59,039 nt of DNA from a virus (taxonomy: Duplodnaviria > Caudoviricetes): IMG/VR virus record IMGVR_UViG_3300036975_000019, positions 1-59,039 of that record; one strand, given 5' to 3'. Position 1 is the first letter of the stretch. Each line of letters starts with the position of its first letter. Of the stretch, positions 2,358-49,173 are shown piece by piece. The translations under genes and the position numbers were made by a program. Under the pieces are notes generated by a model, which made no database searches, was not told the origin of the DNA, and was given only the letters and a program-made list of their open reading frames with translations.

Positions 2358-2365
2358 GGGAGAAA

Positions 2366-2596
2366 ATGAGCTATTCACCTACGCCTGAAAAATCTACAGA
2401 GGTGATGGATTTTCCAGCAGCAATGCAGGCAGTGATCGGCGGGAAATTCATTACCAGGATCGAATGGAACGATTCGACGATCCTGGGCGGGCGGCATAAC
2501 GGGATTTTGATGTTGTATATTAACAACGATTGGCACCAGTGGATTGTCAGCGATGGCGATCTGCTGGGGCAGGACTGGATTGTTCTCGGTGATTGA
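2366..2596 (+). CDS. DUF2829 / Tad2-like protein (putative anti-Thoeris nucleotide sponge)
   Basis: MDFPAAMQAV..GKFITRIEWN...WIVSDGDLLGQDW matches the family pattern F..A+..+..G..+.R..WN...W..S..D+LA.DW. Confidence 0.7.
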   Translation: MSYSPTPEKSTEVMDFPAAMQAVIGGKFITRIEWNDSTILGGRHNGILMLYINNDWHQWIVSDGDLLGQDWIVLGD

Positions 2597-3548
2597 TTTA
2601 TCCGTTCTCATTCCGGCACGCAACGAGCGATGGTTGGCGCGAACGATTGCCGACATTCTGGAAAATAGCCGGGCCGAAACCGAGATCATTACCGTTCTGG
2701 ATGGTGCGTGGGCCGATCCGCCGATATTACAGAACGATCGGGTGACGGTTGTGTACCATCCGGTGAGCGTCGGTCAGCGAGCAGCAACAAACGAGGCGGC
2801 GCGACTGGCGCGGGGCCAATTTATAATGAAGTGTGACGCGCACTGCGCCTTCGGGGCCGGATTTGATGTAGCACTGATGTCGCGTTGTGAGCCGATGGAT
2901 ACGGTAATGCCCGAACAGCGCAATCTGCATGTATTCGACTGGCAGTGTCAGAAATGCGGGGCGCGGTGGTACATGGGACCGGAGCCGACAGAGTGCCCGG
3001 AGTGCGACAATACAAGCGAGTTTGAACGCATCGAGATATGGCAGCCGAAGGCGAACAGTCGAAATCGGCATTACTGTTTCGATAGTCAATTGCATTTTCA
3101 GTATTGGCGCGATTACAAAAAGCGCGCCGGCAATGGGGTAATGGTCGAATCAATGTCGCTACTCGGCGCGTGTTGGATGATGCACAGGGTGCGTTATTCT
3201 GAGATTGGCGGGCTTGATGAACGGCACGGCTCGTGGGGCCAGATGGGGACTGAGGTCGCGTGCAAAACGTGGCTGTCCGGCGGGCGGCTATTGACCAATC
3301 GGGCGACGTGGTTCGCGCACATGTTCAGAACGCGCAAGGGATTTTCATTTCCCTATCCGATGCGAAGCCAAGATCAACGGCGAGCGCGCGAGCATTCGTG
3401 GTGGTTATGGGCAGAAAGCAACTGGGAACAACCACACAAACCGCTATCGTGGTTGCTGGATAGATTCTGGCCGATTGTGCAGGGCGATGTCGAGCACTGG
3501 ACGGCAGTGGATAGGGAGGCACAGAGGAAAAGAGATTGTGGCAACTAA
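2589..3548 (+). CDS. Glycosyltransferase family 2 with inserted zinc ribbon
   Basis: LSVLIPARNE, MKCDAHC, LDERHGSWG; CQKC...CPEC insertion; paralogous to 248-1093. Confidence 0.88.
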   Translation: MIDLSVLIPARNERWLARTIADILENSRAETEIITVLDGAWADPPILQNDRVTVVYHPVSVGQRAATNEAARLARGQFIMKCDAHCAFGAGFDVALMSRCEPMDTVMPEQRNLHVFDWQCQKCGARWYMGPEPTECPECDNTSEFERIEIWQPKANSRNRHYCFDSQLHFQYWRDYKKRAGNGVMVESMSLLGACWMMHRVRYSEIGGLDERHGSWGQMGTEVACKTWLSGGRLLTNRATWFAHMFRTRKGFSFPYPMRSQDQRRAREHSWWLWAESNWEQPHKPLSWLLDRFWPIVQGDVEHWTAVDREAQRKRDCGN

Positions 3549-4224
3549 AGCCTGCCTCTATTATACGTGCTCGACGCTCGATTCTCGCATTGCGCGGGCC
3601 TGTAGGGAGCAATTGGACAGAGCACGAGGAAGTATACCGCTGGTGAGCGTGTCTCGTTCGCCGCTTGGATACGGGCAGAAAACGATTGTCATTCATGGCG
3701 AGCGAGGCGTAGAGACAATGCACCGGCAGATTGTAGCCGGTCTAAAGGCAATTGAATCTGATGTTGTTTTTATGTGTGAGCATGATGTTTTGTATCACCC
3801 ATCACATTTTGAATTTACACCGTCGCGCCAGGACGTGTTTTATTACAATACGAATGTCTGGAAATTGCGATACGATGATGGACACGCAGTCTGGACGGAC
3901 GATCTACAGCAGGTAAGCGGGCTGTGCGCCTGGCGTGAAATGTTGCTTGAATATTACTCGAAGCGATTGGTTAAATTGTGGGTCGACGGCTGGGACAGGC
4001 ATTATGAGCCGGGGCCGAAAACGGGAAATTACCGAACCGAGAATTGGCAAAGTCCGCATTGCAATCTAGACATTCGGCATGGGCGCAATCAGACCAGAAG
4101 CAAGTGGAAGCCGTCCGAATTTCGCAATCAGCGCTATGCAAAAGGCTGGCGGGAAACGGACGACATTCTGCCGGGATGGGGCAAAACGGGGCGCGAGATA
4201 GTCGAGGACATACGATGCAACTAA
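3538..4224 (+). CDS. GT-A fold glycosyltransferase-like protein
   Basis: GLKAIESDVVFMCEHDVLYHPSHF (ExD-type metal motif); DIRH; located in the GT cluster. Confidence 0.65.
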   Translation: MATKACLYYTCSTLDSRIARACREQLDRARGSIPLVSVSRSPLGYGQKTIVIHGERGVETMHRQIVAGLKAIESDVVFMCEHDVLYHPSHFEFTPSRQDVFYYNTNVWKLRYDDGHAVWTDDLQQVSGLCAWREMLLEYYSKRLVKLWVDGWDRHYEPGPKTGNYRTENWQSPHCNLDIRHGRNQTRSKWKPSEFRNQRYAKGWRETDDILPGWGKTGREIVEDIRCN

Positions 4225-31354: not shown

Positions 31355-32254
31355 ATGCCACGCTTGCAACCATCCTACGTTTGCCTAGACAAAAGCCAGG
31401 GCAATCTAATCGAACAAATTGAGAAAACCAAACACAAAGTGCGCATGTTGCAGGAAAATACGCTGCCCACCGCAGGCGGTGAACGCGAGGGCAACAGCAT
31501 TGCGGACGAGACGCAAGCTATCATATACGAGGGAAATATACCCGTCGGCGGCATCATATTATGGCATGGCTCGTCAGGTAATATCCCATCTGGTTGGGCG
31601 CTGTGCAATGGCAGCAACGGCACGCCCGATCTGCGAAACAGATTTGTCGTTGGCGCCGGCGATACCTATAGCCCGGGCGATACCGGCGGCTCGTCCTCCA
31701 TTGACTGGGAACACAATCACAGCTCGGGCAGTTACGCAACGGATAACGACTCACATAGTCACAATGTCGAGGGAACCAGTGCCAGCGAATCGAGCCATAC
31801 CCACGGCACCGGCTCATTGGTTACGGCGAACGAGTCGAGCCATACCCACGGCATAGGCTCAATAGCGGCGGCGAACGAATCAAGCCATACCCACGGCGCT
31901 GGATCTTATGCCGCAGACGCATCATCCAGCGCGACGGTTGATTTGCAGAGCACGCTATATGATACGAACGTCCGAAACCTCAACCATACACATAATGTCT
32001 CGGGCGAGAGCAGCGCCGGCAGTGCCCACACGCACAGCATGAGCGGTACCAGTGCGGCGGGATCTACTCACAATCACACCGTCTCAGGCAGCACCGCCGC
32101 CGGTTCATCTCACAGCCACGGTGCGGGCAGCTATTCAACCGATAGCGACAGCCACAGTCACGATGTCACCGGATCGAGCAGTACAGAAGGCAGCTCGTCA
32201 GAAAGCATTTTACCACCATACTACGCGCTGTGCTGGATTATGCGCGTCTCGTAA
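31355..32254 (+). CDS. Tail fibre with collar domain and HxH metal-binding repeats
   Basis: PVGGIILW..IPSGWALCNGSNGTPDLRNRFVVGAG; ten HxH motifs; LPPYYALCWIMR end. Confidence 0.85.
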   Translation: MPRLQPSYVCLDKSQGNLIEQIEKTKHKVRMLQENTLPTAGGEREGNSIADETQAIIYEGNIPVGGIILWHGSSGNIPSGWALCNGSNGTPDLRNRFVVGAGDTYSPGDTGGSSSIDWEHNHSSGSYATDNDSHSHNVEGTSASESSHTHGTGSLVTANESSHTHGIGSIAAANESSHTHGAGSYAADASSSATVDLQSTLYDTNVRNLNHTHNVSGESSAGSAHTHSMSGTSAAGSTHNHTVSGSTAAGSSHSHGAGSYSTDSDSHSHDVTGSSSTEGSSSESILPPYYALCWIMRVS

Positions 32255-32359: not shown

Positions 32360-32392
32360 AATTTCTAACCAATTTCTAACCAATTTCTAACC
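32360..32392. repeat. Three perfect tandem 11-bp repeats AATTTCTAACC
   Basis: Copies at 32360, 32371 and 32382. Confidence 0.9.
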
Positions 32393-32401
32393 ATTTGCCT
32401 A

Positions 32402-32430: not shown

Positions 32431-32473
32431 ATAGACAGCTAATCAAACGGTGACCGCGGAAATGGAGAGCAAA

Positions 32474-32932
32474 ATGATAGAGAAAATCAAAGTTTGGAAA
32501 AAGAACTGGAACGGAAAAGATGGCTACAAAATCGAAACAAGAATCTACATCGACCTCGACAACGGCAAGCGCGGCGGCTTTTTCCTGACAGGGAATCCAT
32601 ACCAAAATGCAGGCGACATCGACGGCCAGATTACACAAGCCGACATTGACGAAGCGCTCGAACTTTGCGGCGGCGAATGGCACACGATGTACCGTGAAGA
32701 ATGCGAGGCTGCCTACAAATCACAACCGCAAGACAACCACGATTTTTTCTCAGCATTTTTCGATACACCAGAAACGCCGGTTTGCTTCGAATGCGGAACG
32801 ACAGAAAATCTAGTTTGCATCAATAACGACAGCGGAATGTATCTCTGCCAGAAATGCCGGTCTAAAATACAACAACACACAATATGCTCATTGGCATCAG
32901 ATCCAACAGAGGAAGCGGCGAGAAATCAATAA
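32474..32932 (+). CDS. Hypothetical early protein with C-terminal zinc finger
   Basis: GGAGAG RBS; CFECG...LCQKC. Confidence 0.6.
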   Translation: MIEKIKVWKKNWNGKDGYKIETRIYIDLDNGKRGGFFLTGNPYQNAGDIDGQITQADIDEALELCGGEWHTMYREECEAAYKSQPQDNHDFFSAFFDTPETPVCFECGTTENLVCINNDSGMYLCQKCRSKIQQHTICSLASDPTEEAARNQ

Positions 32933-32979
32933 TTTTCAGTGCCCCGCCGGTGGCCTCGTAACCGGCAAGGAGAGAAGGA

Positions 32980-33396
32980 ATGACTGAAACAAGATTAGTT
33001 TGCTCAAAGTGCGGCAAAACAAAAGAGCGTAGCGAGGCGCTCAAAGCTGGCTGGTTGGAACACCAGATCAAAGATGCGCCGGCAGGTTATCTAATCATCC
33101 GCTGCCCGGAACACATCACTGGCCACGCGCTGAGGATGGCGGGATTGCCACAGCAAAAAGTCAGCAAGCGGATTGCCGACAACCTAGATCGCGGCCTCTG
33201 GTGCGAATTCGGCGACGATTACATCGCCAGCGCAAGCGAGATCGACACCGATGACGGCATTGCCTTCGCGCTCTCGTATCATCACGAAGGCATGCCGGCG
33301 CACAAATCAAAAACGTTTGATACGGTGCTCGCGCTGATCGTGGCAATGCGCGAAGTCGAACCGGATCTTCGAAAGTGGCGGCTTAGAGAATTATAA
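32980..33396 (+). CDS. Hypothetical early protein
   Basis: CSKC...CPEH; strong RBS. Confidence 0.6.
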   Translation: MTETRLVCSKCGKTKERSEALKAGWLEHQIKDAPAGYLIIRCPEHITGHALRMAGLPQQKVSKRIADNLDRGLWCEFGDDYIASASEIDTDDGIAFALSYHHEGMPAHKSKTFDTVLALIVAMREVEPDLRKWRLREL

Positions 33397-33466
33397 CCTT
33401 GCAGAAACGTACAATAAAAGGGCCGATTTTGGCCCTTTTTTGCTATCATGTTTGCAGGATTGTCTA

Positions 33467-33495
33467 TTGACAATACGCTAGCGATATGCTATAAT
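33467..33495 (+). promoter_or_regulatory. Consensus sigma70 promoter
   Basis: TTGACA-17-TATAAT; flanks similar to the 32402 promoter. Confidence 0.85.
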
Positions 33496-33538
33496 GTAGA
33501 CAGTTAACCAAACAGCGAACACGAAACGGAGAACGAAA

Positions 33539-33919
33539 ATGGCATTCAAAATCATAGCACCAAATGGACAGAAATATACGATAGACGGAAACAGATTGGC
33601 AATGAATCGCGCAGTCGATTACAATTTGTTTGAAAAAGGCAATTACGGACCGTATCAGTTGGACGCCGAGGATTGGGGAATTTTAAGCGGCGCATTCAGC
33701 AAATGCATCAGCCAGGAGGAATTCGGCAATATCGACAGCACAAATTGGCACGACCACCCAGCGACCAGCCGCCAACGTGAGTATTTGGCAATTCTGCAGG
33801 TCAGAATCCCCGACGGCTACCCATTGACCAAAGGCGCCGCCAGCACGATCATCGGCTCAGTGAAAAGCGGAAACGGCGTCGGCTCATTCGGACTGACCTT
33901 CACAGACGGAAGCAACTAG
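33539..33919 (+). CDS. Hypothetical early protein
   Basis: GGAG RBS; PATSRQREYL...LTKGAASTII small helical motif. Confidence 0.6.
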   Translation: MAFKIIAPNGQKYTIDGNRLAMNRAVDYNLFEKGNYGPYQLDAEDWGILSGAFSKCISQEEFGNIDSTNWHDHPATSRQREYLAILQVRIPDGYPLTKGAASTIIGSVKSGNGVGSFGLTFTDGSN

Positions 33920-33923
33920 AAAC

Positions 33924-33949
33924 GGGCGGGGAAACCCGCCCTCATTTTT
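33924..33949 (+). terminator. Intrinsic terminator-like hairpin
   Basis: GGGCGGG-GAAA-CCCGCCC then TCATTTTT. Confidence 0.6.
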
Positions 33950-33961
33950 CAGGAGAATACA

Positions 33962-34423
33962 ATGGCAAAAATGCAATTAAACGTTCGGATCCCCAACATC
34001 ACCCGCCGGCAAATGGACACAATCGCCGGGCGGGAAAATATGACAAAGGGCGAGATTGTAACTCTTGCCGTGGATAGGCTGTATGCACAGCTAGAAAGGG
34101 AGCACAAAATGGATGAAAAAATCACGAGCGTCAGATACGGATTTCACGCAGCAGATTTACTGATCGGCGACGACGAAATGGAAATGTACGACGAGCGTCT
34201 GAGCGCAGCCAAGTACGCGGATTTGGTCGAGACCAAATTCCGCGAGGCTTATCCAGAAGCCGATATCGAGGTCGTCTATGATTTCGGAGCCGGCGGCGTA
34301 TTGCCCTATCCGCTCAGAGCCGCCGTCAATGACGAGATCGATCACCGCGAGATCGGCACCGTCCAGCACATCGCTGGGCAGGTGTACGAGGATTTCGCCT
34401 GGTGCGTGGAGAAAGGGGAATAG
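33962..34423 (+). CDS. Ribbon-helix-helix protein with C-terminal extension
   Basis: KMQLNVRIPNITRRQMDTIA...KGEIVTLAVDRLY. Confidence 0.6.
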   Translation: MAKMQLNVRIPNITRRQMDTIAGRENMTKGEIVTLAVDRLYAQLEREHKMDEKITSVRYGFHAADLLIGDDEMEMYDERLSAAKYADLVETKFREAYPEADIEVVYDFGAGGVLPYPLRAAVNDEIDHREIGTVQHIAGQVYEDFAWCVEKGE

Positions 34424-34438
34424 CAGCAAGCTGGAATC

Positions 34439-34463
34439 AGGCCCCCACATCGGGGGCTTTTTT
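34439..34463 (+). terminator. Terminator between convergent operons
   Basis: AGGCCCCC/GGGGGCTT stem plus T run. Confidence 0.7.
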
Positions 34464-34684
34464 CATTCCAACAGAACGCCAAATGCGACGGCGGCGGCAA
34501 TCAGCGCGTCATTGTAGCCGCGTTCATATAGGGCTATTTTCTCTCCAAGTTCGTGCAGGTCGGGCTGGCTTCCCATTTCGGCGATAAATTCTCGCACCAC
34601 AATCGGCGCGCCCGTACTCGCGAGCGAAACGCCGTACAGTATGTTCGCTATGTCATCACGAAAAAATACCTCTAATGCCATCAT
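34463..34684 (-). CDS. Small hypothetical protein, last gene of the reverse operon
   Basis: AAGGTG RBS; 73 aa. Confidence 0.55.
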   Translation of the reverse strand: MMALEVFFRDDIANILYGVSLASTGAPIVVREFIAEMGSQPDLHELGEKIALYERGYNDALIAAAVAFGVLLE

Positions 34685-34737
34685 TCACCTTTCTTGTCTA
34701 CTACTCTACTCGCCTACACATTCACGCCCAAGTATGC

Positions 34738-36048
34738 CTACAGTAGACCAGTAGAGTAGACGATTTCTTTGACCCGATTCCAGTTTGCCCCACCGCGCTG
34801 GCCTCCGAAAATTTCAGCCGTGACAGAGGTGATGTTTGGCCGTTCCATTGACGCCCAGGTATCGATCACCCGTTGTTTCAGGTCATCTGGCGTGTCTGGC
34901 ATTTCTCGCTGCGGGCCGTTTCCGGTCATTGCTGCGATAATATCCTGGCGCCCGATGATCGGTGCCTGAAATTCCATAATGTCTCGACCTGGCAACCAGG
35001 CCAGCGCGCGGCCCTGGACGTTGATATTTTGTGCATCGGATGTGTCAAGCAGGATGCGCGATTGCGCGCCGCTTTTTGCTTTGAACTGGACACAACACGA
35101 GAGCTGATTACGAATGGTCGTATCTACATTTGCGGCTTTCCAATCCTGTCCAGCGAGGATTAGCCACATCCCGAACTTGCGCGCGCGGAGGGCCAATGTA
35201 GCCAACCCATCCTCAACGTTTCGATCTGCCAACAGTGCCGTGATTTCATCACCGATTACGACAAGAGGCTTGATCGGCTCGCCTGCCATCGAATTGTACA
35301 GGTAGAGTGAATCGACGCCAGTGTACTGGCTGAACAATTCGCGCCGGCGATTGAGTTCGTCTGTCAATTCAGAAAATACAGCAACGGTATCGCGTTCGCT
35401 GTCGATGACTGGATAAAGCAGTCGATCACAGGCCTCAAATGGTGCAAGTGTCGCTTTTTCTAGGTCGATCATTACCAGATCGACCGGATCGGCAGACATT
35501 GCCAACTGGTACGCTATCGATCGCAAAAAGATTGACTTTCCCCAACCGCTTGAACCGCCCACGGCTATGTGGACCAGTTCGGACATATCCGCCTTGACTG
35601 GGCCGTCGGCGCCCATGCCAAGTACAAGGTTTCGATATGTCGGCATCTCAACAAGCGAACGAAGCGGAACATGCGTCGGCAGTTCCCTTGCCGTATCGGG
35701 CACAAGCTGCGCGATTTGTTCAGGCGATCCGTTGTTCGCGGCCATCAACATCAAGCGCATTTTGTGAAATTCATCTTGTACCACGTCGCGTACAATGTCG
35801 CCGATCATTCCATACCATGCACCACTGTCCAGATCACGGAATACAGAACCGTTGTAGACTGCGCCAAGATTGCCATTTGCGTCCCGTTCAAAATGTCGCA
35901 TTGCTTCGGCGGCCATCTGTTGCAATCGCACGTCGTCGGCCTGTTTGACACGTAACCGTTTGTACATTCTAGGCGCAATCATTGATAACGCGGAAATCCA
36001 GAAATCACCTGTCATCGTCACTGCCTCCAAATCTATTCGTATTGGCAC
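34738..36048 (-). CDS. FtsK/SpoIIIE (TraB-like) DNA translocase ATPase
   Basis: HIAVGGSSGWGKS Walker A; MIDLEK; ELNRR; VVIGDE Walker B; ARKFGMWLILAGQ; possible C-terminal wHTH. Confidence 0.88.
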   Translation of the reverse strand: MPIRIDLEAVTMTGDFWISALSMIAPRMYKRLRVKQADDVRLQQMAAEAMRHFERDANGNLGAVYNGSVFRDLDSGAWYGMIGDIVRDVVQDEFHKMRLMLMAANNGSPEQIAQLVPDTARELPTHVPLRSLVEMPTYRNLVLGMGADGPVKADMSELVHIAVGGSSGWGKSIFLRSIAYQLAMSADPVDLVMIDLEKATLAPFEACDRLLYPVIDSERDTVAVFSELTDELNRRRELFSQYTGVDSLYLYNSMAGEPIKPLVVIGDEITALLADRNVEDGLATLALRARKFGMWLILAGQDWKAANVDTTIRNQLSCCVQFKAKSGAQSRILLDTSDAQNINVQGRALAWLPGRDIMEFQAPIIGRQDIIAAMTGNGPQREMPDTPDDLKQRVIDTWASMERPNITSVTAEIFGGQRGGANWNRVKEIVYSTGLL

Positions 36049-36305
36049 CGCTCTCGCGCGTCTTTGTACAATTTATAGATTTCTCTTTTGCTTTCCGTCA
36101 CAAATACACATAGCCAAACCCAGGCTATTTCTCCTAGCAGAATCACAGAAAAAAATGGCGCTATGTCTACCAGTATTTTGAACGCATAGATTAGGGCAAC
36201 TGAAAGGCCCACCAAAGTGCCAGAAAATATAAAGATCGTGCCCCACTCTATCAGATTTCGTTTCAAGCGCTCTGCTATATATTGCCTTACACATTTTCTA
36301 CTCAT
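36033..36305 (-). CDS. Small two-TM membrane protein
   Basis: Two hydrophobic stretches; GGAGG RBS; overlaps the FtsK start. Confidence 0.65.
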   Translation of the reverse strand: MSRKCVRQYIAERLKRNLIEWGTIFIFSGTLVGLSVALIYAFKILVDIAPFFSVILLGEIAWVWLCVFVTESKREIYKLYKDARERCQYE

Positions 36306-36717
36306 TGTCATCACCTCCAAACGCCCGCCGGTATGCTAGATCCGCATCCTCGCGCGCCTGCTTTTTCGGGAACCAGGCCGAGAAAATGCCCGAGTTCGCC
36401 TCGCGTGGTTTGCGCGTTGATGGGCTGTGCTTGTCGATTGTCTGGACAAAAAACGAGACGGCGAGCGTCAGGCCGAATAATCCCCAGGGGAGAAGCAGGC
36501 CGATCATCCATCCGCCCCACGTTTCGGCAATAAATGTCCAGGCCGTGCGTGCGTCAATTTTCCATAGCCGCCAAATCGCGCAAATCAGGAATGTGCCGAC
36601 CTCGACGACATCCACGGCCAGCGCGCCAACAACAGCCATCACGGTGGGGATTTTGACTTCTGTTTCGAGGCCGACATTGGTTTTCTCTGGTGGAATGTCT
36701 ATGACAGGTCTAGCCAT
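36298..36717 (-). CDS. Two-TM membrane protein
   Basis: Hydrophobic segments; GGAGG RBS; coupled to the upstream gene. Confidence 0.7.
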   Translation of the reverse strand: MARPVIDIPPEKTNVGLETEVKIPTVMAVVGALAVDVVEVGTFLICAIWRLWKIDARTAWTFIAETWGGWMIGLLLPWGLFGLTLAVSFFVQTIDKHSPSTRKPREANSGIFSAWFPKKQAREDADLAYRRAFGGDDNE

Positions 36718-37499
36718 TATTCTGCCTCCATTCCGTGCCCGTTGCTGCCAAGTTTGCCTGCAAGTTTCACTTGGCGCACATCCTTCGCGGCGGTAGTACG
36801 CGAAACCCCGAATAACTTGCCAAGTCGCGTATAGGTGATTTCGGGTTGTTTCGCCAAAGTCTCGGCAATTGCGATTTGCCTATCATTCAGTTGCACCGGC
36901 TCTGGTTTCGGTTGCGCTGGTTCCGGTTCTGGTTGCGCGACAGTTTCGCTATTATCCTGCAATGATTTAGCAACTTTCACCTCGGTTTCGTTTCCATTGA
37001 TGATCTTGCGGTGTAATGCCGCGCGACGGTTCGCCGCAACCGTCGCAAGCGCCGAAACTACCGGGAATAGGATCGCAAGTAACATGATTGGCGGTGCAAC
37101 TTTCGTTGCCACCTGATAGATTGCGTTGAATGCCACGACGCAACCAGTAACGATATAGTACGCGATTACCATCACGCCTGCACCCTGAGCATCCTCAAGC
37201 GGTAATTTGGTATCTTTGGCATTGTGCCGCCTTTGATATGCCTGTTGCGTCTCGTTGAATGCCTGAGCCTCTAGATAATAGGAATTGACGCCAAACCCGG
37301 CAATCTCGATACTGGCGGCCACGATAAACGCCAACCACGGCGGCAAATCAAATATCGTCATGATAGCATTGCCCGTCATAGCTGCCTCCGGTATGGGGGC
37401 AAGCCAGTTCGACGCCATTGTCAACGACGATACAAATGCGGCATTGACCTCGCCTGTCCAGTGATCAAACCAGGGTGAAATGTTTTTGTATTGTTTCAT
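36717..37499 (-). CDS. Multi-TM membrane protein with C-terminal HTH (SpdA/DUF2637-like architecture)
   Basis: About four TM segments, a Pro/Glu linker, then LNDRQIAI...PEITYTRLGKLFGVSRTTAAKDV. Confidence 0.7.
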   Translation of the reverse strand: MKQYKNISPWFDHWTGEVNAAFVSSLTMASNWLAPIPEAAMTGNAIMTIFDLPPWLAFIVAASIEIAGFGVNSYYLEAQAFNETQQAYQRRHNAKDTKLPLEDAQGAGVMVIAYYIVTGCVVAFNAIYQVATKVAPPIMLLAILFPVVSALATVAANRRAALHRKIINGNETEVKVAKSLQDNSETVAQPEPEPAQPKPEPVQLNDRQIAIAETLAKQPEITYTRLGKLFGVSRTTAAKDVRQVKLAGKLGSNGHGMEAE

Positions 37500-37717
37500 T
37501 CCCCAATCCTTTCCAATATCTCCTCACCTAACCGTTCGATCCTGTCTAGTTGTTTGCTAATCGTCGTCAGCATTGTGCTCTCTCTCAAATACCGCCGAAC
37601 TGCCACGCGCACAATCTCGGACTTTTCATCCCCCGGCGTCGTAGTCCACCATTCGTATAAATCAGGGTGCTTCGTGTCGGTAACGGCGGCTTGCATGCTC
37701 ACTCGTTTTGATTTCAT
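37496..37717 (-). CDS. Putative RHH-type repressor of the reverse operon
   Basis: KSEIVRVAVRRYL; first gene after the promoter; GAGGT RBS. Confidence 0.6.
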   Translation of the reverse strand: MKSKRVSMQAAVTDTKHPDLYEWWTTTPGDEKSEIVRVAVRRYLRESTMLTTISKQLDRIERLGEEILERIGE

Positions 37718-37750
37718 ATCACCTCGTTTGTGTGTTATGATTATAATACA

Positions 37751-37779
37751 AGTATACCACGACTGCGCCCGCCTGTCAA
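37751..37779 (-). promoter_or_regulatory. Promoter of the TraB-like operon
   Basis: Minus strand TTGACA-17-TATACT with extended TG. Confidence 0.8.
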
Positions 37780-37831
37780 CAAGTTTACAACTGTAAATAA
37801 AAATTGGCTACAAATGTGAACGAATTGGGTA

Positions 37832-37860
37832 TTGACACCAGAGGAAAAATGGTGTATAAT
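37832..37860 (+). promoter_or_regulatory. Divergent consensus sigma70 promoter
   Basis: TTGACA-17-TATAAT; ACACCA...TGGTGT inverted repeat. Confidence 0.85.
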
Positions 37861-37904: not shown

Positions 37905-38108
37905 ATGACAAAGATTTATTTTACAGGTTATGGAACAAATGGGGGCCGCGCCGAGAATTTGATGGGCGCGGCGAAAGCAAAACGCCGCATCGAAAACGCG
38001 GCAGACAAGCGCGCCGCATGCGGCGCGATCAACCGGGAGTGGGACGAGAAACGTTGCGATGAATTTGATGGGTGCTGGATATGTACCCGACGGGTACATA
38101 TAAAATGA
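37905..38108 (+). CDS. Small hypothetical protein
   Basis: First ORF after the promoter; ATGA-coupled. Confidence 0.5.
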   Translation: MTKIYFTGYGTNGGRAENLMGAAKAKRRIENAADKRAACGAINREWDEKRCDEFDGCWICTRRVHIK

Positions 38109-38440
38109 CAAAAGCAACCACGGTACGATTTCCAATCGGACTGGTGCAGGCCATCCGCGATGAGCAGGTCCGAGAGCATCGCGGATCGCAAACCGAGACC
38201 GTCACGTCATTGATCATTGACGGCCTCAAGTCTCGCGGGGTCTACAATTTCAACGATGCCTGCCGCGAAATCAAAATGTACTGGAGGCGGGACGAGTTCC
38301 ATGACTGGTGTCGAGAGAATGGCGTGCCAACGTTCAATACGGTGACGGCCTGGGAGAACTACGCTCAGGCATTCGAGACAGACGGCGACGTTGCAGACGA
38401 GCGCGCCACCCAGCAGGATGCGCTGCCGGGCGCGTCGTAG
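38105..38440 (+). CDS. RHH-like N-terminal domain protein
   Basis: KATTVRFPIGLVQAIRDE...TETVTSLIIDGL. Confidence 0.55.
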   Translation: MTKATTVRFPIGLVQAIRDEQVREHRGSQTETVTSLIIDGLKSRGVYNFNDACREIKMYWRRDEFHDWCRENGVPTFNTVTAWENYAQAFETDGDVADERATQQDALPGAS

Positions 38441-39990: not shown

Positions 39991-40403
39991 TGGACGCACA
40001 AAATCAAGTCACACAAAACACAGCGGATCGTGGCTATCGTGACGGCTGGACGGCGGAGCAGTTCGCGGCCCGACAGGTGTGCAAGCTAATAGAGGAGCTT
40101 GGGGAATTAGCGAGATGTTTTTGGCTACCAAAAGTTTCTCCGCGAACTCGTATAGATCAGCTTATGATTGATTTATCTGGAGAGGCCAAATGGATTTTTG
40201 ACGATGATACTTTATGGGACGATCATCCAATCGACGGCGTTGGGATAGCAAGCACGATCTATGCCCGGTCCGAACTCGCTGACCTCCAAGTCGTCGTATT
40301 CAACCTCGCTGCCGCTCTAGCCGAAATCACCGGCGAACCGTTCGACGTGGTGCAGGCTGCGGTTGACAAGAGCACGGCTGATGTGAAGCGAGGGGTACGG
40401 TGA
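39990..40403 (+). CDS. MazG-like nucleotide pyrophosphohydrolase
   Basis: KLIEELGELA...ELADLQVV. Confidence 0.7.
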   Translation: MDAQNQVTQNTADRGYRDGWTAEQFAARQVCKLIEELGELARCFWLPKVSPRTRIDQLMIDLSGEAKWIFDDDTLWDDHPIDGVGIASTIYARSELADLQVVVFNLAAALAEITGEPFDVVQAAVDKSTADVKRGVR

Positions 40404-41077
40404 AATTCCAGACGATTCTGGCCGATCCGCCGTGGTGGTATGCAGACCAGCGCAAGATTCGCAAAGACGGCGCTGGCCCAACTCGCGGGATCGGTGCGTG
40501 TCATCACTACGACCAGATGAAAACAAAAGATATAGCAACGATCCCGGTTTGGAACATTGCCGCCGAGAGATGTCATTGCTACGTGTGGGCAACAATGCCA
40601 CTCCTGCCAGATGCGTTTCACGTTCTGTCAACTTGGGGTTTTCGCTGGGCAACCGTCGCGTTTTGCTGGGTCAAGGTCAACTCCAAGCGGTTCGATGACG
40701 CGATCCTGGATGTGCTGCAGCCGACGATGCTGGACAATGGGCGTACGGTTGAAACGTTCCTCGACGCACTCACATTTTTTGGTCCTGGATTCTACACAGG
40801 CAGCAATATCGAGCTGGTATTGCTGGGCACAAAAGGGCAACCATTCAAGCACGCCGCAGGTTGCAAGGCGTCGCAGATCATTTATGCGCCACTGACAGAG
40901 CACAGCGCGAAACCTGACGAGGTACAAAGGCGGATCGCCTGGATGTATCCCAACGCAACGCCACGCCTTGAAATGTTTGGCCGGCGGTCCATTGACGGTT
41001 GGACGGTGATCGGGAACGAAGCGCCAGGGTACGAAGGCGAGGACATTCGAGATAGTCTAAAGAAGTTGGCAGAATGA
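40400..41077 (+). CDS. MT-A70 family adenine methyltransferase
   Basis: ILADPPW, HYDQM, WAT, WVK, HSAKP, RLEMFGR..GW..IGNE. Confidence 0.9.
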   Translation: MKFQTILADPPWWYADQRKIRKDGAGPTRGIGACHHYDQMKTKDIATIPVWNIAAERCHCYVWATMPLLPDAFHVLSTWGFRWATVAFCWVKVNSKRFDDAILDVLQPTMLDNGRTVETFLDALTFFGPGFYTGSNIELVLLGTKGQPFKHAAGCKASQIIYAPLTEHSAKPDEVQRRIAWMYPNATPRLEMFGRRSIDGWTVIGNEAPGYEGEDIRDSLKKLAE

Positions 41078-42589: not shown

Positions 42590-42802
42590 ATGACGCAATC
42601 GACTGACCTGCCGATCCTCACCATCACCAGAAACGGTGACGGCACTATCACACAAACCTATTCTGTCAATGGCGAAACCGTCACAATGCCACCATTTAGG
42701 CCAAAAATATCCAGTTTGCAGCGATGGCTTGAGGACGGTGAGGTGCCGGTGACGTGGGCGGACGGGGGGATGACGGTGTTTAGATTGGAGGAGGCCGACT
42801 AG
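42590..42802 (+). CDS. Small hypothetical protein
   Basis: AGGAG RBS. Confidence 0.5.
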   Translation: MTQSTDLPILTITRNGDGTITQTYSVNGETVTMPPFRPKISSLQRWLEDGEVPVTWADGGMTVFRLEEAD

Positions 42803-43557
42803 TGCGGTATCTCGGTGGCAAGTCTCGACTTGGTAAACAAATCGCTTACGTCATTAATCAGATCCGCAAGCCCGGGCAATCCTACTGGGAGCCATTCTGT
42901 GGTAGCTGTTGGGTGACAATCCACGTTCACAACGTCGGCCCAATGTATGCCAGTGATGGGTGTTATGAGTTGATCGAAATGTGGAAGGCGCTGCAAAACG
43001 GTTGGCAGCCTCCGCGTATCGTGACAGAGGAAATGTATCAAGAGGCGAAAGCGGGCAAATTTGATCCGGCATTGACGGCGTTTATCGGGTTCGGATGTTC
43101 GTTTGGGGGTAAGTGGTTTGCGGGGTATGCGAGAGATCCGAAATCTGATCGCAACTATGCCGCCAATAGCGAGAACTCAATAATGAAACGCCTGATTGAT
43201 TTGCGAGACGTTCGCTTCTTTTTCGCTGATTATCGCCGCCCAGCACCACAAGCCGAATGCCTGATATACGCCGATCCGCCATACGCCGGCACGACAGGTT
43301 ATCACGCTGTTGATGGATTCAACACGGGCGAATTTTGGCAATGTGTCCGCAACTGGGCAACAACTGGTAATAAGGTCATTATCTCAGAATATGCTGCGCC
43401 AAATGATTTTGCTTGCATTCTAGAAATGCCAACCCGCACCGATCTAGAATCAGCAGGCGGTGGCAAAGATCCACGCATCGAGCGCCTATTCATGCACGAA
43501 TCACAGGCGCATCTCTATTATGAGAATGTGCCAGAACAAATGGAGTTGGAATTATGA
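42802..43557 (+). CDS. D12-class (Dam-like) DNA adenine methyltransferase
   Basis: MRYLGGKSRL, EPFCGS, IYADPPY, ISEY. Confidence 0.9.
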   Translation: MRYLGGKSRLGKQIAYVINQIRKPGQSYWEPFCGSCWVTIHVHNVGPMYASDGCYELIEMWKALQNGWQPPRIVTEEMYQEAKAGKFDPALTAFIGFGCSFGGKWFAGYARDPKSDRNYAANSENSIMKRLIDLRDVRFFFADYRRPAPQAECLIYADPPYAGTTGYHAVDGFNTGEFWQCVRNWATTGNKVIISEYAAPNDFACILEMPTRTDLESAGGGKDPRIERLFMHESQAHLYYENVPEQMELEL

Positions 43558-43724
43558 CCGACAACGACAAACCCGATCATCTCGACGCAGCAAAAGCCGC
43601 CATTGACGCGGCGATAGCTGATTTGGAAACGCTCAAGGCTCGAATTGAGGCACTGCGGGCGGCAATTCGCGAGCTAGTTGACCTCGTGCCGGAATGGATG
43701 AAAGATGAAACCCCTTCTACTTGA
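43554..43724 (+). CDS. Small coiled-coil protein (not in ORF track)
   Basis: ATGA-coupled, GGAG RBS; MTDNDKPDHLDAAKAAIDAAIADLE... Confidence 0.5.
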   Translation: MTDNDKPDHLDAAKAAIDAAIADLETLKARIEALRAAIRELVDLVPEWMKDETPST

Positions 43725-44481
43725 TACATTTTGTGGTGCGGGTGGGTGCTCAATGGGCTACCATCGCGCCGGCTTTGATGTGGTGGGCGTGGATATAAAC
43801 CCGCAGCCGCATTACCCGTTTCCGTTTATTCTGGGTGATGCGCTTGAGGTGCTGCGCCGGCTGATAGCAGGCGAGGCAATACAGGCGAGCGATAGTAAAT
43901 CGTACACGCTGGATGATTTTGCCGTGATACACGCAAGCCCGCCGTGCCAGGTTCACAGCACAATGACAAAACGATGGGGTCAGGACGTTGTACAGGGGCA
44001 TGTCGATTTGATACCCGCAACGAGGGCAATACTCAAGGCAACAGGAAAGCCATATATTATCGAGAACGTCGAAGGCGCAAGGTCCAAGCTGATTTGCCCG
44101 GTTATGTTGTGTGGTACAATGTTTGGACTGGGTTCTATGGGCGCACAATTGCGACGCCATCGCTATTTTGAGTGTTCGTTTTTCGTAGGATTGACGCCGC
44201 CGTGCCAACATAACAAATCGTCGGCGATTGGTGTTTATGGAGGCGGGCAACATCCCCGGCGGCGCAAAACGATTGGTGTTTACGGGCATTCTGGCGGGCG
44301 TTCAAAGCGTGATAATTATATGGCCTTTGGCGTTGATGCAAGACGCGAGGCCATGGGTATCGACTGGATGACGCAGGATGAACTATCTCAAGCCATCCCG
44401 CCCGTTTACACCGAATGGATCGGACAGAAATTGCTTGAGGTGCTGCCAGAATGGATGAAGGAGAAAACGAAGAATGGATAG
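43705..44481 (+). CDS. C5 cytosine DNA methyltransferase
   Basis: LDTFCGAGG, HASPPCQ, IENV, RRHR.FE, LSQAIPP. Confidence 0.9.
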   Translation: MKPLLLDTFCGAGGCSMGYHRAGFDVVGVDINPQPHYPFPFILGDALEVLRRLIAGEAIQASDSKSYTLDDFAVIHASPPCQVHSTMTKRWGQDVVQGHVDLIPATRAILKATGKPYIIENVEGARSKLICPVMLCGTMFGLGSMGAQLRRHRYFECSFFVGLTPPCQHNKSSAIGVYGGGQHPRRRKTIGVYGHSGGRSKRDNYMAFGVDARREAMGIDWMTQDELSQAIPPVYTEWIGQKLLEVLPEWMKEKTKNG

Positions 44482-46179: not shown

Positions 46180-47421
46180 ATGGCAGACACAAAACAACTA
46201 GCCCTATTCGACTATGATCAGCTCGACACGCCAACACGCGACTTCGTGCAGCAACGCACGGAGGAAATCCGCATCCTGGCCCGGCGGATGGCTAATGATA
46301 TTGTCGGGATAGGTCAGCGACTTATCGAGATCAAGGCACGTCTGGGACACGGGCATTTTGGCGAGTGGCTGGAGTATGAGTTTTCGTGGTCGCATACTAC
46401 AGCCTGGAAATTTATGAGGGTAGCTGAAGCGTTCAAATTTTCACATTGTGAAAATTTGACCATAGAAGCCAGCGCTCTCTACCTGCTAGCCGCCCCGTCA
46501 ACCCCCAAAGAAGCCCGCGACGAAGCCATAGAACGTGCCGAACAGGGCGAGGAAATAACGCACGCCACCGCACAAGAGATCGTAGAGGAACACAAAGACG
46601 AGGAGCCGGAGGACGAGCCAGAGCCGATTCGCTTTGTCTGTCCTGACTGCGGACAAGTATTCTCGGATCACGTGTGGCATTGTTTCTATTGCCATAGCCA
46701 TTGGGGAGACTCACAAACTTGGTGTGCAGCGTGCAACCACAAAAAGCCAGACCAGAAAGAGCACGCCGATCTGCTACGCCTTATGCAGAATGCGCCAGAT
46801 CTGTTCCAGCAAGTGCAGCTTGGAGAGCTGACGATCCGGCAAGCCAAGTCACAGATCAACAGACAAGAGCGTGTTGAAAAAGTGCAAGAAATCAGCGACG
46901 GTAACACCGAGATCGATACAGACAAGAAATACCCCGTCATCTACGCTGATCCTCCCTGGCGATACGAGCACAGCAAAACAGACAATCGCAAGATCGAGAA
47001 TCAATACCCAACTATGGAGCTGGCAGACATTCAGAAACTCCCCGTTTCCGAACTCGCAACGCCTGACGCCGTTTTGCTTATGTGGGCTACTGGGCCGAAA
47101 CTTGCCGAGGCGATGACGGTGATTGAGGCGTGGGGATTCACATACCGCACAAGTATGGTATGGGTGAAAGACAAGATCGGCATGGGCTATTATGCCAGGC
47201 AGCGTCACGAGCTTTTGCTGATTGCAGCGAGGGGTTGCCTGCCAGTGCCAGAGCCGGCAAACAGACATGATTCTGTTGTTGAGTCACCGCGATTAGAACA
47301 CAGCAAAAAACCGGATGTGTTCTATGAGATTATCGAGTCTATGTATCCAGAGTATGCAAAGATCGAACTGTTTAGCAGGAATAAACGTGAGGGGTGGGAT
47401 AATTGGGGAAATCAGGCGTAA
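46180..47421 (+). CDS. DUF3102-like / zinc ribbon / MT-A70 methyltransferase fusion
   Basis: IGQRLIEIKARLGHGHFGEWL; CPDC..CFYC..CAAC; YADPPW, HSKKP, KIELFSR. Confidence 0.88.
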   Translation: MADTKQLALFDYDQLDTPTRDFVQQRTEEIRILARRMANDIVGIGQRLIEIKARLGHGHFGEWLEYEFSWSHTTAWKFMRVAEAFKFSHCENLTIEASALYLLAAPSTPKEARDEAIERAEQGEEITHATAQEIVEEHKDEEPEDEPEPIRFVCPDCGQVFSDHVWHCFYCHSHWGDSQTWCAACNHKKPDQKEHADLLRLMQNAPDLFQQVQLGELTIRQAKSQINRQERVEKVQEISDGNTEIDTDKKYPVIYADPPWRYEHSKTDNRKIENQYPTMELADIQKLPVSELATPDAVLLMWATGPKLAEAMTVIEAWGFTYRTSMVWVKDKIGMGYYARQRHELLLIAARGCLPVPEPANRHDSVVESPRLEHSKKPDVFYEIIESMYPEYAKIELFSRNKREGWDNWGNQA

Positions 47422-47979: not shown

Positions 47980-49173
47980 ATGGCAAAAGCACTTTTACAC
48001 GAATTAGGCAAATCACTATCATACGGACGCTTGACACTGCGGGCAAAAGTGCTTTGGCCGATGCTGCTGGCATCAAGCGATGACCAGGGACGTGGGCTGG
48101 CTGAGGCAGACTCGGTAAAATGGTACGTCTGCCCGAACGTGCCCGAGATCGCAATAGATGACGTGCCGGCGCTTTTTTCCGAAATGGCGCAGCAGGGCAT
48201 GATCGTCACCTATGACACGGATCGGGGACTTGTCTACCAGATCGTGCGATGGTGGGAGTACCAGAGCCTCCAATGGGCCAGGCCGTCAAAATACGACGCA
48301 CCGGAGGGCTGGACGGATCGCATTCGCTATAGCAATCGAGGTGACTGTCACGCCTGCAACTGGGACACGTGCGGCGGCTTTGATGCCCAGCCACGAGAAG
48401 AACCCCAAGAAGACGATGATACCCCGCAAGAAAACGAACCGGAGACGGTAGAAAACCAGGTAGAAAACTACGTAGACAACCAACCTAACCTAACTCAACC
48501 TAACTTAACTCAATCTAATTTAACTGATAAAAACCACGCGCCCTCCGGCGCGGTTGAAAAATCCCCTGAAAATCAGGGTGATCTAGAGCTATTCTACGGC
48601 GGGGACGTTCCAGAACAGCGAGAACGGTCCCCAGTAACCCCACCAGAACCCCGCGATGCTGTGGCTGATATTGTCGAACAGGCTGCAAAGCGTCAACGCG
48701 ATCCGCTATGGTGGCTCAAGCCAGGTACATTTTGTGGGGATCATAATTATCTTGAACCATACCGGGCGTTTTGTGGTGTCATCCGGCGCGATCCGTCGCT
48801 CGTGGGGGAACACAAGACAAAAAAATGGCTGGCGCAGTTCGAGAAAATGGCCGTCATATCACCAGGTGGAGGGGATTGCGATCCGGTGATCATTCCGCCC
48901 GGCATTATGGCAGATGCGATTAAGGCCATCCGTGACGATTGGAATTTCCAGCACAGGCGATGGACGACGCCGTTTTCGAACACGTTTCGTGACGCGGTTG
49001 AGCTGGTTGCCGCGCAATTGATGAACGGTCAGAACGTTGACGGCGCACCACCGAAGCAGCCTATCGTCGTTAGTGTGCCGACAGGTGATCCGGGCTGGAT
49101 GATAAAACCAACGCCCGAAATGGCTGCTGCACGAGAGCGTGCTAGGAGGAGAGTAGAGAGTGGCGTCTTTTGA
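47980..49173 (+). CDS. Replication initiator (wHTH, replisome organiser-like)
   Basis: SDDQGRG, YQIVRWWEYQ N-terminal domain; internal repeats; upstream of a loader-like gene. Confidence 0.7.
   Translation: MAKALLHELGKSLSYGRLTLRAKVLWPMLLASSDDQGRGLAEADSVKWYVCPNVPEIAIDDVPALFSEMAQQGMIVTYDTDRGLVYQIVRWWEYQSLQWARPSKYDAPEGWTDRIRYSNRGDCHACNWDTCGGFDAQPREEPQEDDDTPQENEPETVENQVENYVDNQPNLTQPNLTQSNLTDKNHAPSGAVEKSPENQGDLELFYGGDVPEQRERSPVTPPEPRDAVADIVEQAAKRQRDPLWWLKPGTFCGDHNYLEPYRAFCGVIRRDPSLVGEHKTKKWLAQFEKMAVISPGGGDCDPVIIPPGIMADAIKAIRDDWNFQHRRWTTPFSNTFRDAVELVAAQLMNGQNVDGAPPKQPIVVSVPTGDPGWMIKPTPEMAAARERARRRVESGVF
48481..48525. repeat. AACYY pentamer tandem array inside the initiator gene (candidate origin)
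   Basis: caacctaacctaactcaacctaacttaactcaatctaatttaact. Confidence 0.6.

Follow-up and report, generated by a model that had tools for sequence, protein, structure and literature searches.

The window analysed here is the whole of IMG/VR record IMGVR_UViG_3300036975_000019, a stretch of 59,039 bases from a complete 59-kb tailed phage, in which an operon of six leftward open reading frames (ORFs), located at 34463-37717 on the minus strand, encodes a single ATPase of the FtsK superfamily together with predicted membrane and DNA-binding proteins. The best reading of this operon is that it forms an accessory, sequence-directed module for the translocation of double-stranded DNA (dsDNA), whose membrane-bound motor would take the phage's own genome as its cargo. 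Such a motor for self DNA is favoured because a single FtsK-type motor with a helix-turn-helix (HTH)-like end occurs alongside a DNA-binding membrane partner, small coupled membrane proteins and a unique repeat, in a mobile context and in a cassette that appears dispensable. It is possible, with somewhat less than an even chance, that the operon transfers phage DNA without virions into a neighbouring Chloroflexota cell. The mode of such transfer would be TraB/Spd-like, yet the ATPase is placed outside the TraB family. The sequence-only reading of this DNA had proposed a Streptomyces-like TraB/Spd transfer module; the layout, which parallels that of a tra-spd operon, the clt-like repeat and the presence of DUF2637 in one related locus (L069) agree with that proposal, but the ATPase is not TraB, the membrane partner in the window is not recognised as a DUF2637 protein and the regulator is not of the GntR type.

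The ATPase, a protein of 436 aa encoded at 34738..36048 on the minus strand, has been assigned to the FtsK/SpoIIIE type through profiles, a tree and an AlphaFold2 (AF2) model. It matches Pfam FtsK_SpoIIIE (PF01580) with E 5e-15 and 56 bits against a cut-off of 24, as well as phrog_1358 with E 8e-38, and its Walker A (GGSSGWGKS) and Walker B (D267-E268) motifs are invariant in 22 relatives. A profile search of the PDB returned FtsK (3e-24), EccC (6e-22) and TcpA (1.4e-15), and a Foldseek search with the AF2 model (pLDDT 80) returned the FtsK motor (2e-19, TM-score 0.55), TcpA (1e-18) and EccC (1e-17) at roughly equal levels. The window protein contains one ATPase domain, where a protein of the type VII secretion system (T7SS) kind shows three. 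No hydrophobic segment was detected in the window ATPase or in its clade; most relative ATPases carry one to three N-terminal transmembrane (TM) segments. Family-wide, a motif of the form H-I-x-P-D..G-R-L-G...R-D-x-D is conserved in the N-terminal region (residues ~52-80), which was modelled by AF2 with low confidence.

Taking into account profile scores, hhalign comparisons and the tree, which set the family apart, the window ATPase family is placed as a separate clade of the FtsK superfamily, distinct from TraB, TcpA, EccC and cellular FtsK. The best-scoring named model was EssC from NCBIfam (E 4e-19, 68 bits against a cut-off of 778), EccCa reached 58 bits against 509 and FtsK PRK10263 reached 49 against 1566. 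The sequence-only reading had taken the ATPase for a Streptomyces-like TraB, an identity that was not upheld, as the TraB model NF041214 gave 15.2 bits (E 0.0056; 15.6 bits in a six-frame search) against a cut-off of 800. When the family was aligned by hhalign to eight references, the highest scores belonged to Bacillus phage Moonbeam gp188 (160), E. coli FtsK (155), mycobacteriophage Omega gp203 (151) and Bacillus FtsK/SpoIIIE (143), followed by TcpA (122), Streptomyces EccC (103), the S. albidoflavus p7 ATPase (82) and pIJ101 Tra (63), the last two being the lowest of the eight. In an unrooted maximum-likelihood tree of 37 motor domains and 275 columns, all 25 family rows fall on one side of a branch with support of 99/97, and FtsK, both phage proteins, the T7SS-type domains, TcpA, pIJ101 Tra and the p7 ATPase fall on the other, with Streptomyces Tra represented by two references only, on very long branches. 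Cellular FtsK/SpoIIIE has the shortest path from the family, and the Moonbeam and Omega proteins branch with cellular FtsK, away from the window family. The same phylogeny, which had been suggested as a check, places no T7SS-type rows on the family side, so that the grouping with secretion ATPases that would have spoken against a DNA pump was not seen.

An exhaustive profile search has recovered 451 clusters of the ATPase family at E <= 1e-30, and the clade has so far been seen only in Chloroflexota genomes and in contigs without a taxon name. Of 8000 candidates scored in a word-indexed search, 198 proved related at E <= 0.001; among the best 120 of these 198, six carry a source name indicative of an organism or habitat: 'Chloroflexi bacterium' in four cases, and 'Anaerolineae bacterium' and 'marine sediment metagenome' in one each. 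When a single genome per species was scanned for the pattern, 12 loci in 7 assemblies were revealed, with all 12 titled Chloroflexota, Anaerolineae, Anaerolineales, Anaerolineaceae or Caldilineaceae. The gene is sporadic in this phylum, with two matches at E <= 1e-60, both already known, in an even sample of 301 Chloroflexota genomes, as would be expected for mobile elements. One Chloroflexota metagenome-assembled genome (MAG), G001, holds five copies (loci L009, L010, L011, L014 and L018, 513-639 bits), pointing to several related elements within a single host or bin. The ATPase-bearing genomes also hold separate frames of 738-813 aa that score 54-104 bits, and these are read as the housekeeping FtsK. 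Among GenBank phages and PLSDB plasmids, nothing nearer than ~32% identity to the ATPase was found, and coverage of the query stayed below 80% in all 250 records. Viral contigs gave no match when scanned with a single protein, but an alignment-based scan did find loci.

The cassette is best described as an add-on outside the phage core, since the ATPase family was not found (E <= 1e-5) in any of the 32 IMG/VR records whose terminase is 43-78% identical to that of the window, 19 of which are at least 90% complete; the same model finds the gene in five genomes. In only one of these five ATPase-bearing genomes was there a terminase match, at 25% identity. The terminase relatives are uninformative on the host, with one organism name only, a Methanoregula MAG, among the 120 listed. 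Of 401 Chloroflexota genomes sampled, 74 had relatives of the capsid (73 of 400 when the unpublished genome G042 is excluded), a count obtained with no other phylum as a control and not used for host assignment. A Chloroflexota host is thus inferred from the relatives of the cassette only. Cultured Anaerolineae and Caldilineae are filamentous.

The C-terminal domain of the ATPase comprises, in both AF2 models, three helices at residues ~387-433 without a wing. A possible C-terminal winged HTH had been suggested by the sequence-only reading; a helical, HTH-like end is present in the models, but the wing is lacking and no library match reached significance, and the label 'HTH-like' is accordingly a structural reading of a predicted model and not a family assignment. 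Homology to the FtsK gamma domain was considered and rejected: a full-length hhalign alignment ran through the gamma domain of E. coli FtsK, but the domain alone reached a probability of at most 0.2% (at most 0.1% against the E. coli and Bacillus gamma domains), and no Ftsk_gamma match occurred in 35 members.

An inverted repeat of iterated CTAC/GTAG-type motifs extends over the ATPase stop codon (34697..34759) and resembles a clt site, which makes it a candidate loading site for the ATPase. Its 17-nt arms (34701-34717 and 34743-34759) lie on either side of the stop codon and are 88% complementary. Folded as RNA, the repeat has a stability of -28.9 kcal/mol (z -4.5), equalled in none of 200 dinucleotide shuffles, and no T run follows it. 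Eight CTAC/GTAG tetramers occur here within 70 nt, the densest cluster of the phage, compared with a mean of 0.26 over the genome and a count of 4 at the second-ranking site. In a survey of 45 non-redundant loci with enough flanking sequence, stable folds (z < -2.5, from mononucleotide shuffles, 60 and 30 per site) were detected at 17 of the 45 ends of ATPase genes and, in the same loci, at 49 of the 353 ends of other genes (Fisher p 2e-4). Thirteen loci have at least six CTAC/GTAG tetramers within 100 nt of the ATPase stop, which is the densest spot of the whole locus in 12 of them. Pairs of CTACTACTA and TAGTAGTAG, counted with one mismatch allowed in each and a spacing of 9-90 nt, number 16 in the 557,452 nt of 60 loci, and 14 of the 16 lie within 150 nt of an ATPase stop; the degenerate copy of the window is not among them. 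One of the two sites away from ATPase ends is a CTACTAC/GTAGTAG inverted repeat near position 5190 of L014, in or beside a 465-aa gene that is present twice in that locus.

Other subgroups of the family have (ACA)n/(TGT)n or GTGACA/TGTCAC repeats in the same place, and the motif varies together with the class of the ATPase C-terminus. Thirteen of 16 loci with a GYxGGxA terminus are CTAC-rich, all seven with GYGNxFYI are ACAAC/GTTGT-rich and all four with GYRNA are GTGAC/GTCAC-rich, with 14 further loci falling outside the three classes. The 5' arm of the repeat is coding in some loci, where it gives TTTT or QQQQ protein tails, and lies wholly past the stop codon in others, and extra direct copies occur in some; this favours a constraint on the DNA. 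With regard to a clt-type arrangement, a three-helix domain with no significant match has been found together with a repeat cluster at the 3' end of the gene which co-varies with the class of that domain.

The presence of a polytopic protein, two 2-TM proteins, an FtsK/SpoIIIE ATPase and a small ORF, all of which had been noted from the letters alone, was supported by hydropathy and profiles. The polytopic membrane protein (260 aa, 36717..37499, minus strand) has three or four predicted TM segments, with hydrophobic stretches at 44-74, 104-132 and 127-158 and a weaker one at ~18-36, followed by a Pro/Glu-rich linker and a C-terminal HTH. This HTH had also been anticipated; an HTH_11 match is indeed present at the C-terminus (E 1.9e-4), but at 21.7 bits it stays below the cut-off of 25. 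Seven relatives of the protein (eight database matches including its own) have kept the membrane part and have variable C-termini. An Spd or DUF2637 identity, for which a profile check had been proposed, was not recovered in the window, where the 260-aa protein gave no match to DUF2637 (PF10935) at E <= 1 in Pfam or at E <= 10 in six frames. Only in the related locus L069 does the protein upstream of the ATPase match DUF2637 (87.8 bits, E 9e-25), and it also bears a C-terminal HTH. A protein encoded two genes after the FtsK-like gene of Streptomyces albidoflavus plasmid p7 likewise combines DUF2637 (2.8e-9) with weak C-terminal HTH matches; pIJ101 SpdB matches no Pfam family.

The window protein is tied to the L069 partner solely through a chain of BLAST matches, which runs from L069 to L015 (full length, 6.5e-17), from L015 to L005 (1e-32) and L042 (1e-16), and from L042 to the 260-aa protein (full length, 6.9e-9). 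In the Atlas, the nearest named cluster (score 0.76) has DUF2637 in 22% of its members, which is a lead only. Homology to DUF2637 is thus shown by profile for the L069 partner and not established for the 260-aa protein of the window. Other membrane partners carry DNA-binding domains as well, with significant winged-HTH matches to an IclR-type HTH in L015 (5e-7), HTH_11 in L027 (2.4e-6) and HTH_24 in L005 (7.7e-8). As judged from these profiles, a membrane domain joined to a DNA-binding domain, beside an FtsK-like ATPase, is a layout common to Streptomyces plasmids and to loci of the ATPase family.

The two smaller membrane proteins, of 139 aa (36298..36717, minus strand) and 95 aa (36033..36320, minus strand), have two hydrophobic spans each. 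Members of the former's family are encoded immediately upstream of the ATPase in L003, L025, L055 and L064, with phmmer matches to L064 (1.4e-28), L003 (1.4e-5) and L055 (2.4e-5) and a match of 4.4e-5 to a hidden Markov model (HMM) of the L003/L025/L055 family. The 95-aa protein, which has no relatives among the loci compared, overlaps the ATPase start by 16 nt. A split gene, in which either protein would be the N-terminal TM part of the longer ATPases, was ruled out, as no similarity was detected.

The first gene of the operon encodes a 73-aa ribbon-helix-helix (RHH)-like protein (37496..37717, minus strand), a candidate regulator or DNA adaptor. Its weak assignment is based on RHH_1 in Pfam (E 0.094), ParR NF010497 (E 0.012) and phrog_38823 (E 3e-4), so that the RHH-like nature proposed for it earlier stands as a weak match, and the Kor/TraR-type control proposed with it does not agree with a regulator that is RHH-like and not of the GntR type. 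With a local HMM derived from five small RHH proteins located 3' of ParM in related loci, this protein was the sole ORF of the window to be matched (E 0.0024).

The six minus-strand ORFs and a promoter of their own, both noted previously, were found again. The first five ORFs overlap by 4, 1, 23 and 16 nt and a gap of 53 nt precedes the sixth; because of these overlaps the first five genes are probably translationally coupled. The predicted leftward promoter (37751..37779, minus strand) is a consensus match only, with TTGACA-17-TATACT, a TG element and 11 of 12 consensus positions. A promoter for the rightward genes faces it (37832-37860, plus strand; 12 of 12 positions), and the divergent region has nine promoter-like sites, against 5.0 +/- 2.1 in shuffles. 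Between the two lies a perfect 14-nt palindrome, TTTACAACTGTAAA (37784..37797), a candidate operator that was read by eye. The last ORF (73 aa, 34463..34684, minus strand) has an AGGTG ribosome-binding site directly 3' of the inverted-repeat hairpin; it gave no match in the profile libraries scanned and only weak phmmer matches, with ORFs of L022 (5e-4) and L011 (5e-3) that lie downstream of the ATPase. The converging rightward unit is closed by a G+C-rich hairpin with a T run (34439..34459, plus strand), which leaves 4 nt to the end of the leftward operon.

The genomic context of the family has been obtained from 70 related loci, with ORFs called by a simple, error-prone greedy script and neighbour families defined by BLAST clustering of the non-duplicate loci, one member per cluster being scanned against Pfam. 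The gene directly upstream of the ATPase, on the same strand, encodes a protein with two to four TM segments in most loci. An actin-like ParM occurs in 10 of 48 non-redundant loci, at 1.3-2.2 kb on the same strand, upstream in nine and downstream in L019; its identity is supported by ALP_N (1.4e-19, one of the ten scanned), and a small RHH gene lies between ParM and the ATPase in five. Other neighbours include tyrosine integrases (nine loci), HTH_17 proteins (seven), large serine recombinases (six), ParA (five), a DnaA_N protein (four) and a primase with DUF927 (three). Locus L002 represents a second tailed phage with the ATPase, having a terminase (2.6e-31) and a portal (2e-61) 1.5 kb downstream, and its parM, RHH and ATPase genes overlap end to start. 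Loci L012, with integrases and the ATPase, and L015, with an integrase, a primase and the ATPase, look like integrative elements. Two further features were observed in single loci. In L058, about six tandem copies of GGTACGCTACC at ~3440-3530, distinct from the inverted repeat at the ATPase end of that locus, follow ParA (2323-3069) and a 116-aa gene and look like a centromere. In L025, a protein with LysM (4e-5) and peptidase M23 (4.9e-14) domains is encoded two genes after the ATPase (2977-3651); such a cell-wall hydrolase could suit a trans-envelope DNA channel and could equally be a phage lysin.

A mechanism can be proposed from these elements. The consensus promoter would drive the six genes, with the RHH-like product probably regulating it or marking the DNA. 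The polytopic HTH protein and the two 2-TM proteins, judging from their anatomy, would form the membrane part that holds the TM-less ATPase. The ATPase would assemble into a ring as in FtsK, in keeping with its family and fold, and co-variation suggests that it may load through its C-terminal three-helix domain onto the inverted repeat at the 3' end of its own gene. DNA would then be pumped across the cytoplasmic membrane or a septum.

Several observations weigh against this mechanism or weaken parts of it. When the C-terminal domain was compared alone, from a 220-sequence alignment, the probability did not exceed 0.2% against FtsK gamma, Bacillus gamma, Tra, TcpA or phage C-termini. In Pfam it gave sub-threshold HTH matches only (best E 0.0056), to HTH_38 in four and to HTH_7 in three of 35 members, with none for the window copy, and Foldseek returned no match at E <= 0.001, the top rows being winged-helix or HTH structures at E ~1. 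The inverted repeat could be merely an RNA hairpin, and its co-variation with the C-terminal class may reflect shared descent in three or four clades only; part of the link is also imposed by the 5' arm, which often encodes the protein tail. The membrane proteins of the window have no detectable likeness to Spd or DUF2637 proteins, although these comparisons are insensitive: the TM parts of the 260-aa family, aligned by hhalign to pIJ101 SpdB, the p7 DUF2637 protein and the L015/L005/L008/L069 group, gave nothing, and a true DUF2637 pair was likewise missed. Persistence of the window phage in cells is only putative, because the phage has no detected integrase, ParM or ParA, as searched for with Pfam models and with local HMMs from the ten ParM and five ParA relatives; a serine recombinase was likewise not found. 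Finally, the frequent parM-parR fusion in relatives points to segregation as much as to transfer.

Segregation is itself an explanation to be weighed. An element-specific FtsK/SpoIIIE could act at the division septum to clear or distribute episome copies together with a partition system, with no transfer between cells that are already separate. The ParM neighbours in 10 of 48 loci, the RHH gene between in five, the end-to-start overlaps of L002, the ParA genes of five loci and the weakly ParR-like RHH protein of the window all fit this, as do motor profile scores that are nearer to FtsK/SpoIIIE (155, 143) than to Streptomyces Tra (63, 82). Nonetheless, the host genomes examined already have a canonical FtsK of ~800 aa, and canonical FtsK moves any trapped DNA; the window phage has neither ParM nor ParA, many relatives are integrative with integrases and need no partition while integrated, and the neighbour identities come from one member per cluster. 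Segregation is considered less likely than transfer.

Exclusion or defence, in which a membrane complex made from a prophage or early in infection would block or expel foreign DNA, is less probable still. It would account for an accessory cassette that was not found in any of 32 terminase-related phages, with its own strong predicted promoter, at a site where temperate phages often keep lysogeny and moron genes, and in PADLOC the ATPase matches SspH (6e-18) and mad8 (1e-16). These matches span the shared ATPase domain only, however, and no other operon gene was matched at E <= 0.01. Among the other five operon proteins, the only ones scanned besides the ATPase, four gave nothing at E <= 0.1, and the 260-aa protein matched WYL (E 0.013) and CasR (E 0.036), which are HTH-bearing and CRISPR-associated and do not belong to Ssp or MADS. 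Action on self DNA would be in keeping with a cis site linked to the ATPase gene of the element itself, and in relatives the neighbouring genes serve partition, replication and integration. Export of a small phage protein by a T7SS-like ATPase is very improbable. EssC is the best-scoring named model and EccC is among the top structural and sequence matches, but the EssC score is a small fraction of its cut-off (68 bits against 778), a single ATPase domain is present instead of three, the family does not group with T7SS-type rows in the tree, and both the HTH-like end of the ATPase and the DNA-binding domains of its partners point to DNA. A self-DNA translocation module remains the preferred reading of the operon.

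The phage that carries the operon has a completeness rating of 100%, and an exact repeat of 127 nt common to both window ends fits a circular assembly. Among sequencing runs, one DNA data set, perhaps the source sample, and no RNA data set was listed as containing the sequence. Genes for the terminase large subunit (TerL), portal, head morphogenesis protein, tape measure and tail fibre were found, and the capsid protease and major capsid protein are fused in one product. The right arm encodes DNA methyltransferases, an RNA ligase, a replication initiator, a Bet-like annealing protein and an exonuclease. The plus strand holds nearly all long ORFs, and sign changes of the GC skew are confined to ~30-38 kb. 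No match at E <= 1 was found for tyrosine integrase, resolvase, relaxase PF03432, VirB4-like AAA_10 (PF12846) or VirD4-like T4SS-DNA_transf (PF02534), these five being the only families tested, with other relaxase families untested; for the families concerned, the stated lack of a relaxase and a type IV secretion system (T4SS) is confirmed. Over-represented 8- to 10-mers of the KOPS-like or clt-like kind were sought throughout the phage, and none was linked to the operon, the clusters falling in tail genes and the replication gene.

Other features of the phage were noted alongside. A perfect 11-nt unit, AATTTCTAACC, is repeated 3.1 times at 32360-32393, 3' of a hairpin with a T run and just 5' of the consensus promoter of the rightward unit 32450-34423, and could be an operator or a centromere-like site. 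RHH-like N-termini were read by eye in two proteins that flank the operon (33962-34423 and 38105-38440), with no RHH match in Pfam for either, and the region may hold a cluster of several small DNA-binding proteins. Iteron-like tandem repeats (12 nt x3 and 15 nt x3) at 48447-48525, within the replication-initiator gene (47980-49173), give a plasmid-like origin architecture. There are four DNA methyltransferase genes (40400-41077, 42802-43557, 43705-44481 and 46180-47421), one of the MT-A70 family and three of PHROG methyltransferase families. Two family-2 glycosyltransferase genes lie at the left end (212-1093 and 2544-3548), and the tail-fibre protein (31355-32254) has many His-rich SSHTHG-type repeats, with a 45-nt tandem DNA repeat at 31786-31897.

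To our knowledge, single-ATPase transfer of dsDNA has been described only for Actinobacteria. A broader proposal is that mobile elements of Chloroflexota, tailed phages included, own a TraB-like form of dsDNA conjugation that acts without virions along or between filaments, with the motor loaded at the repeat at the 3' end of its own gene; this proposal is put forward as doubtful. If true, it would represent a second origin, or an ancient relative, of 'one-protein' conjugation, and phages of such hosts would have a virion-free route of spread as naked DNA. It would also reveal an overlooked form of conjugation in the gene flow of Chloroflexota-rich sediments, mats and wetlands. The ATPase clade, with its 451 clusters, membrane partners, cis site and partition, integration and replication genes, belongs to a second and largely filamentous phylum. 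What is new is the distinct ATPase clade, the matched cis site, the Chloroflexota setting and the presence in complete tailed phages; the idea that phage DNA might spread through Spd-type proteins of actinophages and a conjugative Streptomyces plasmid-phage are already in print. A full-text literature search, with subscription journals and supplements outside its scope, gave nothing joining AICEs, the integrative and conjugative elements of actinomycetes, with Chloroflexi, and nothing relevant on Chloroflexi, FtsK, prophage and conjugative was among the matches listed.

When compared to known systems, the window departs from T4SS-dependent conjugation, with no relaxase PF03432, VirB4-like or VirD4-like match at E <= 1 among the families tested. 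TcpA of the Clostridium perfringens pCW3-type plasmids is similar as an FtsK-like ATPase on a mobile element (Foldseek 1e-18), but it works with a relaxase and a T4SS-like system and tcpM adjoins tcpA, none of which was found in the window. The operon differs from a T7SS in the single domain of its ATPase and in EssC and EccCa scores below cut-off (WXG100 substrates were not searched for), from the Ssp (SspH) and MADS (mad8) systems in that the ATPase alone was matched among the operon proteins, and from ParMRC in that local HMMs detected no ParM or ParA, its RHH protein being weakly ParR-like. Chromosomal FtsK/SpoIIIE proteins are ring-type dsDNA motors with a C-terminal DNA-reading domain. 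They give the best structural and PDB-profile matches to the window ATPase and the shortest tree path; unlike them, the window protein has 436 aa instead of ~800 to 1329, lacks the four-TM N-terminus and a detectable gamma domain, and is encoded by a sporadic accessory gene. The phrog_1358 FtsK/SpoIIIE-like proteins of Bacillus and Mycobacterium phages share the occurrence of such an ATPase on a tailed phage, and Moonbeam and Omega are among the highest hhalign scores, but identity to the window is at most 32% and the tree places these two with cellular FtsK. Such proteins have also been reported in Streptomyces phages; two reports do no more than note the gene (PMC11536984; bioRxiv 10.1101/2024.02.16.580700).

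Among mobile elements outside Actinobacteria, TdtA of the Thermus integrative element ICETh1 is described as a lone ATPase, a hexamer that drives DNA out of the donor, HerA-like and without a DNA-binding domain (PMC5365140). AICEs are described as confined to Actinomycetales and are defined by the presence of Int, Rep and an FtsK-type Tra in one element (Ghinet et al., 2011; PMC3218068). The window has a Rep-like gene at 47980-49173 and no detected tyrosine or serine recombinase. A conjugative Streptomyces plasmid-phage has been reported (PMC3583192, citing Zhong et al., 2010), and Spd-type proteins on actinophages have been proposed to spread phage DNA (PMC4447253). The Streptomyces plasmid-phage pZL12 carries ParA/ParB (PMC4487206), unlike the window, in which none was found; the phylum and the ATPase clade also differ. 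The TraB/Spd systems of Streptomyces plasmids and AICEs, such as pSVH1 and pIJ101, differ from the window in that its ATPase is placed outside the TraB family and has no N-terminal TM anchor, its regulator is RHH-like and not of the GntR type, its inferred host phylum is Chloroflexota and its carrier is a tailed phage. Nonetheless, they share with it one FtsK-like ATPase in the absence of a detected relaxase or T4SS, small translationally coupled membrane proteins, a divergently transcribed regulator and a membrane partner with a DNA-binding domain, which in L069 is a DUF2637 protein as on S. albidoflavus p7. In Streptomyces, SpdB2 has four TM segments and binds dsDNA (PMC4447253), and clt sites are made up of repeats, both direct and inverted, that lie at the 3' end of tra or overlap it (PMC3583192); the repeat cluster of the window likewise lies at the 3' end of its ATPase gene.

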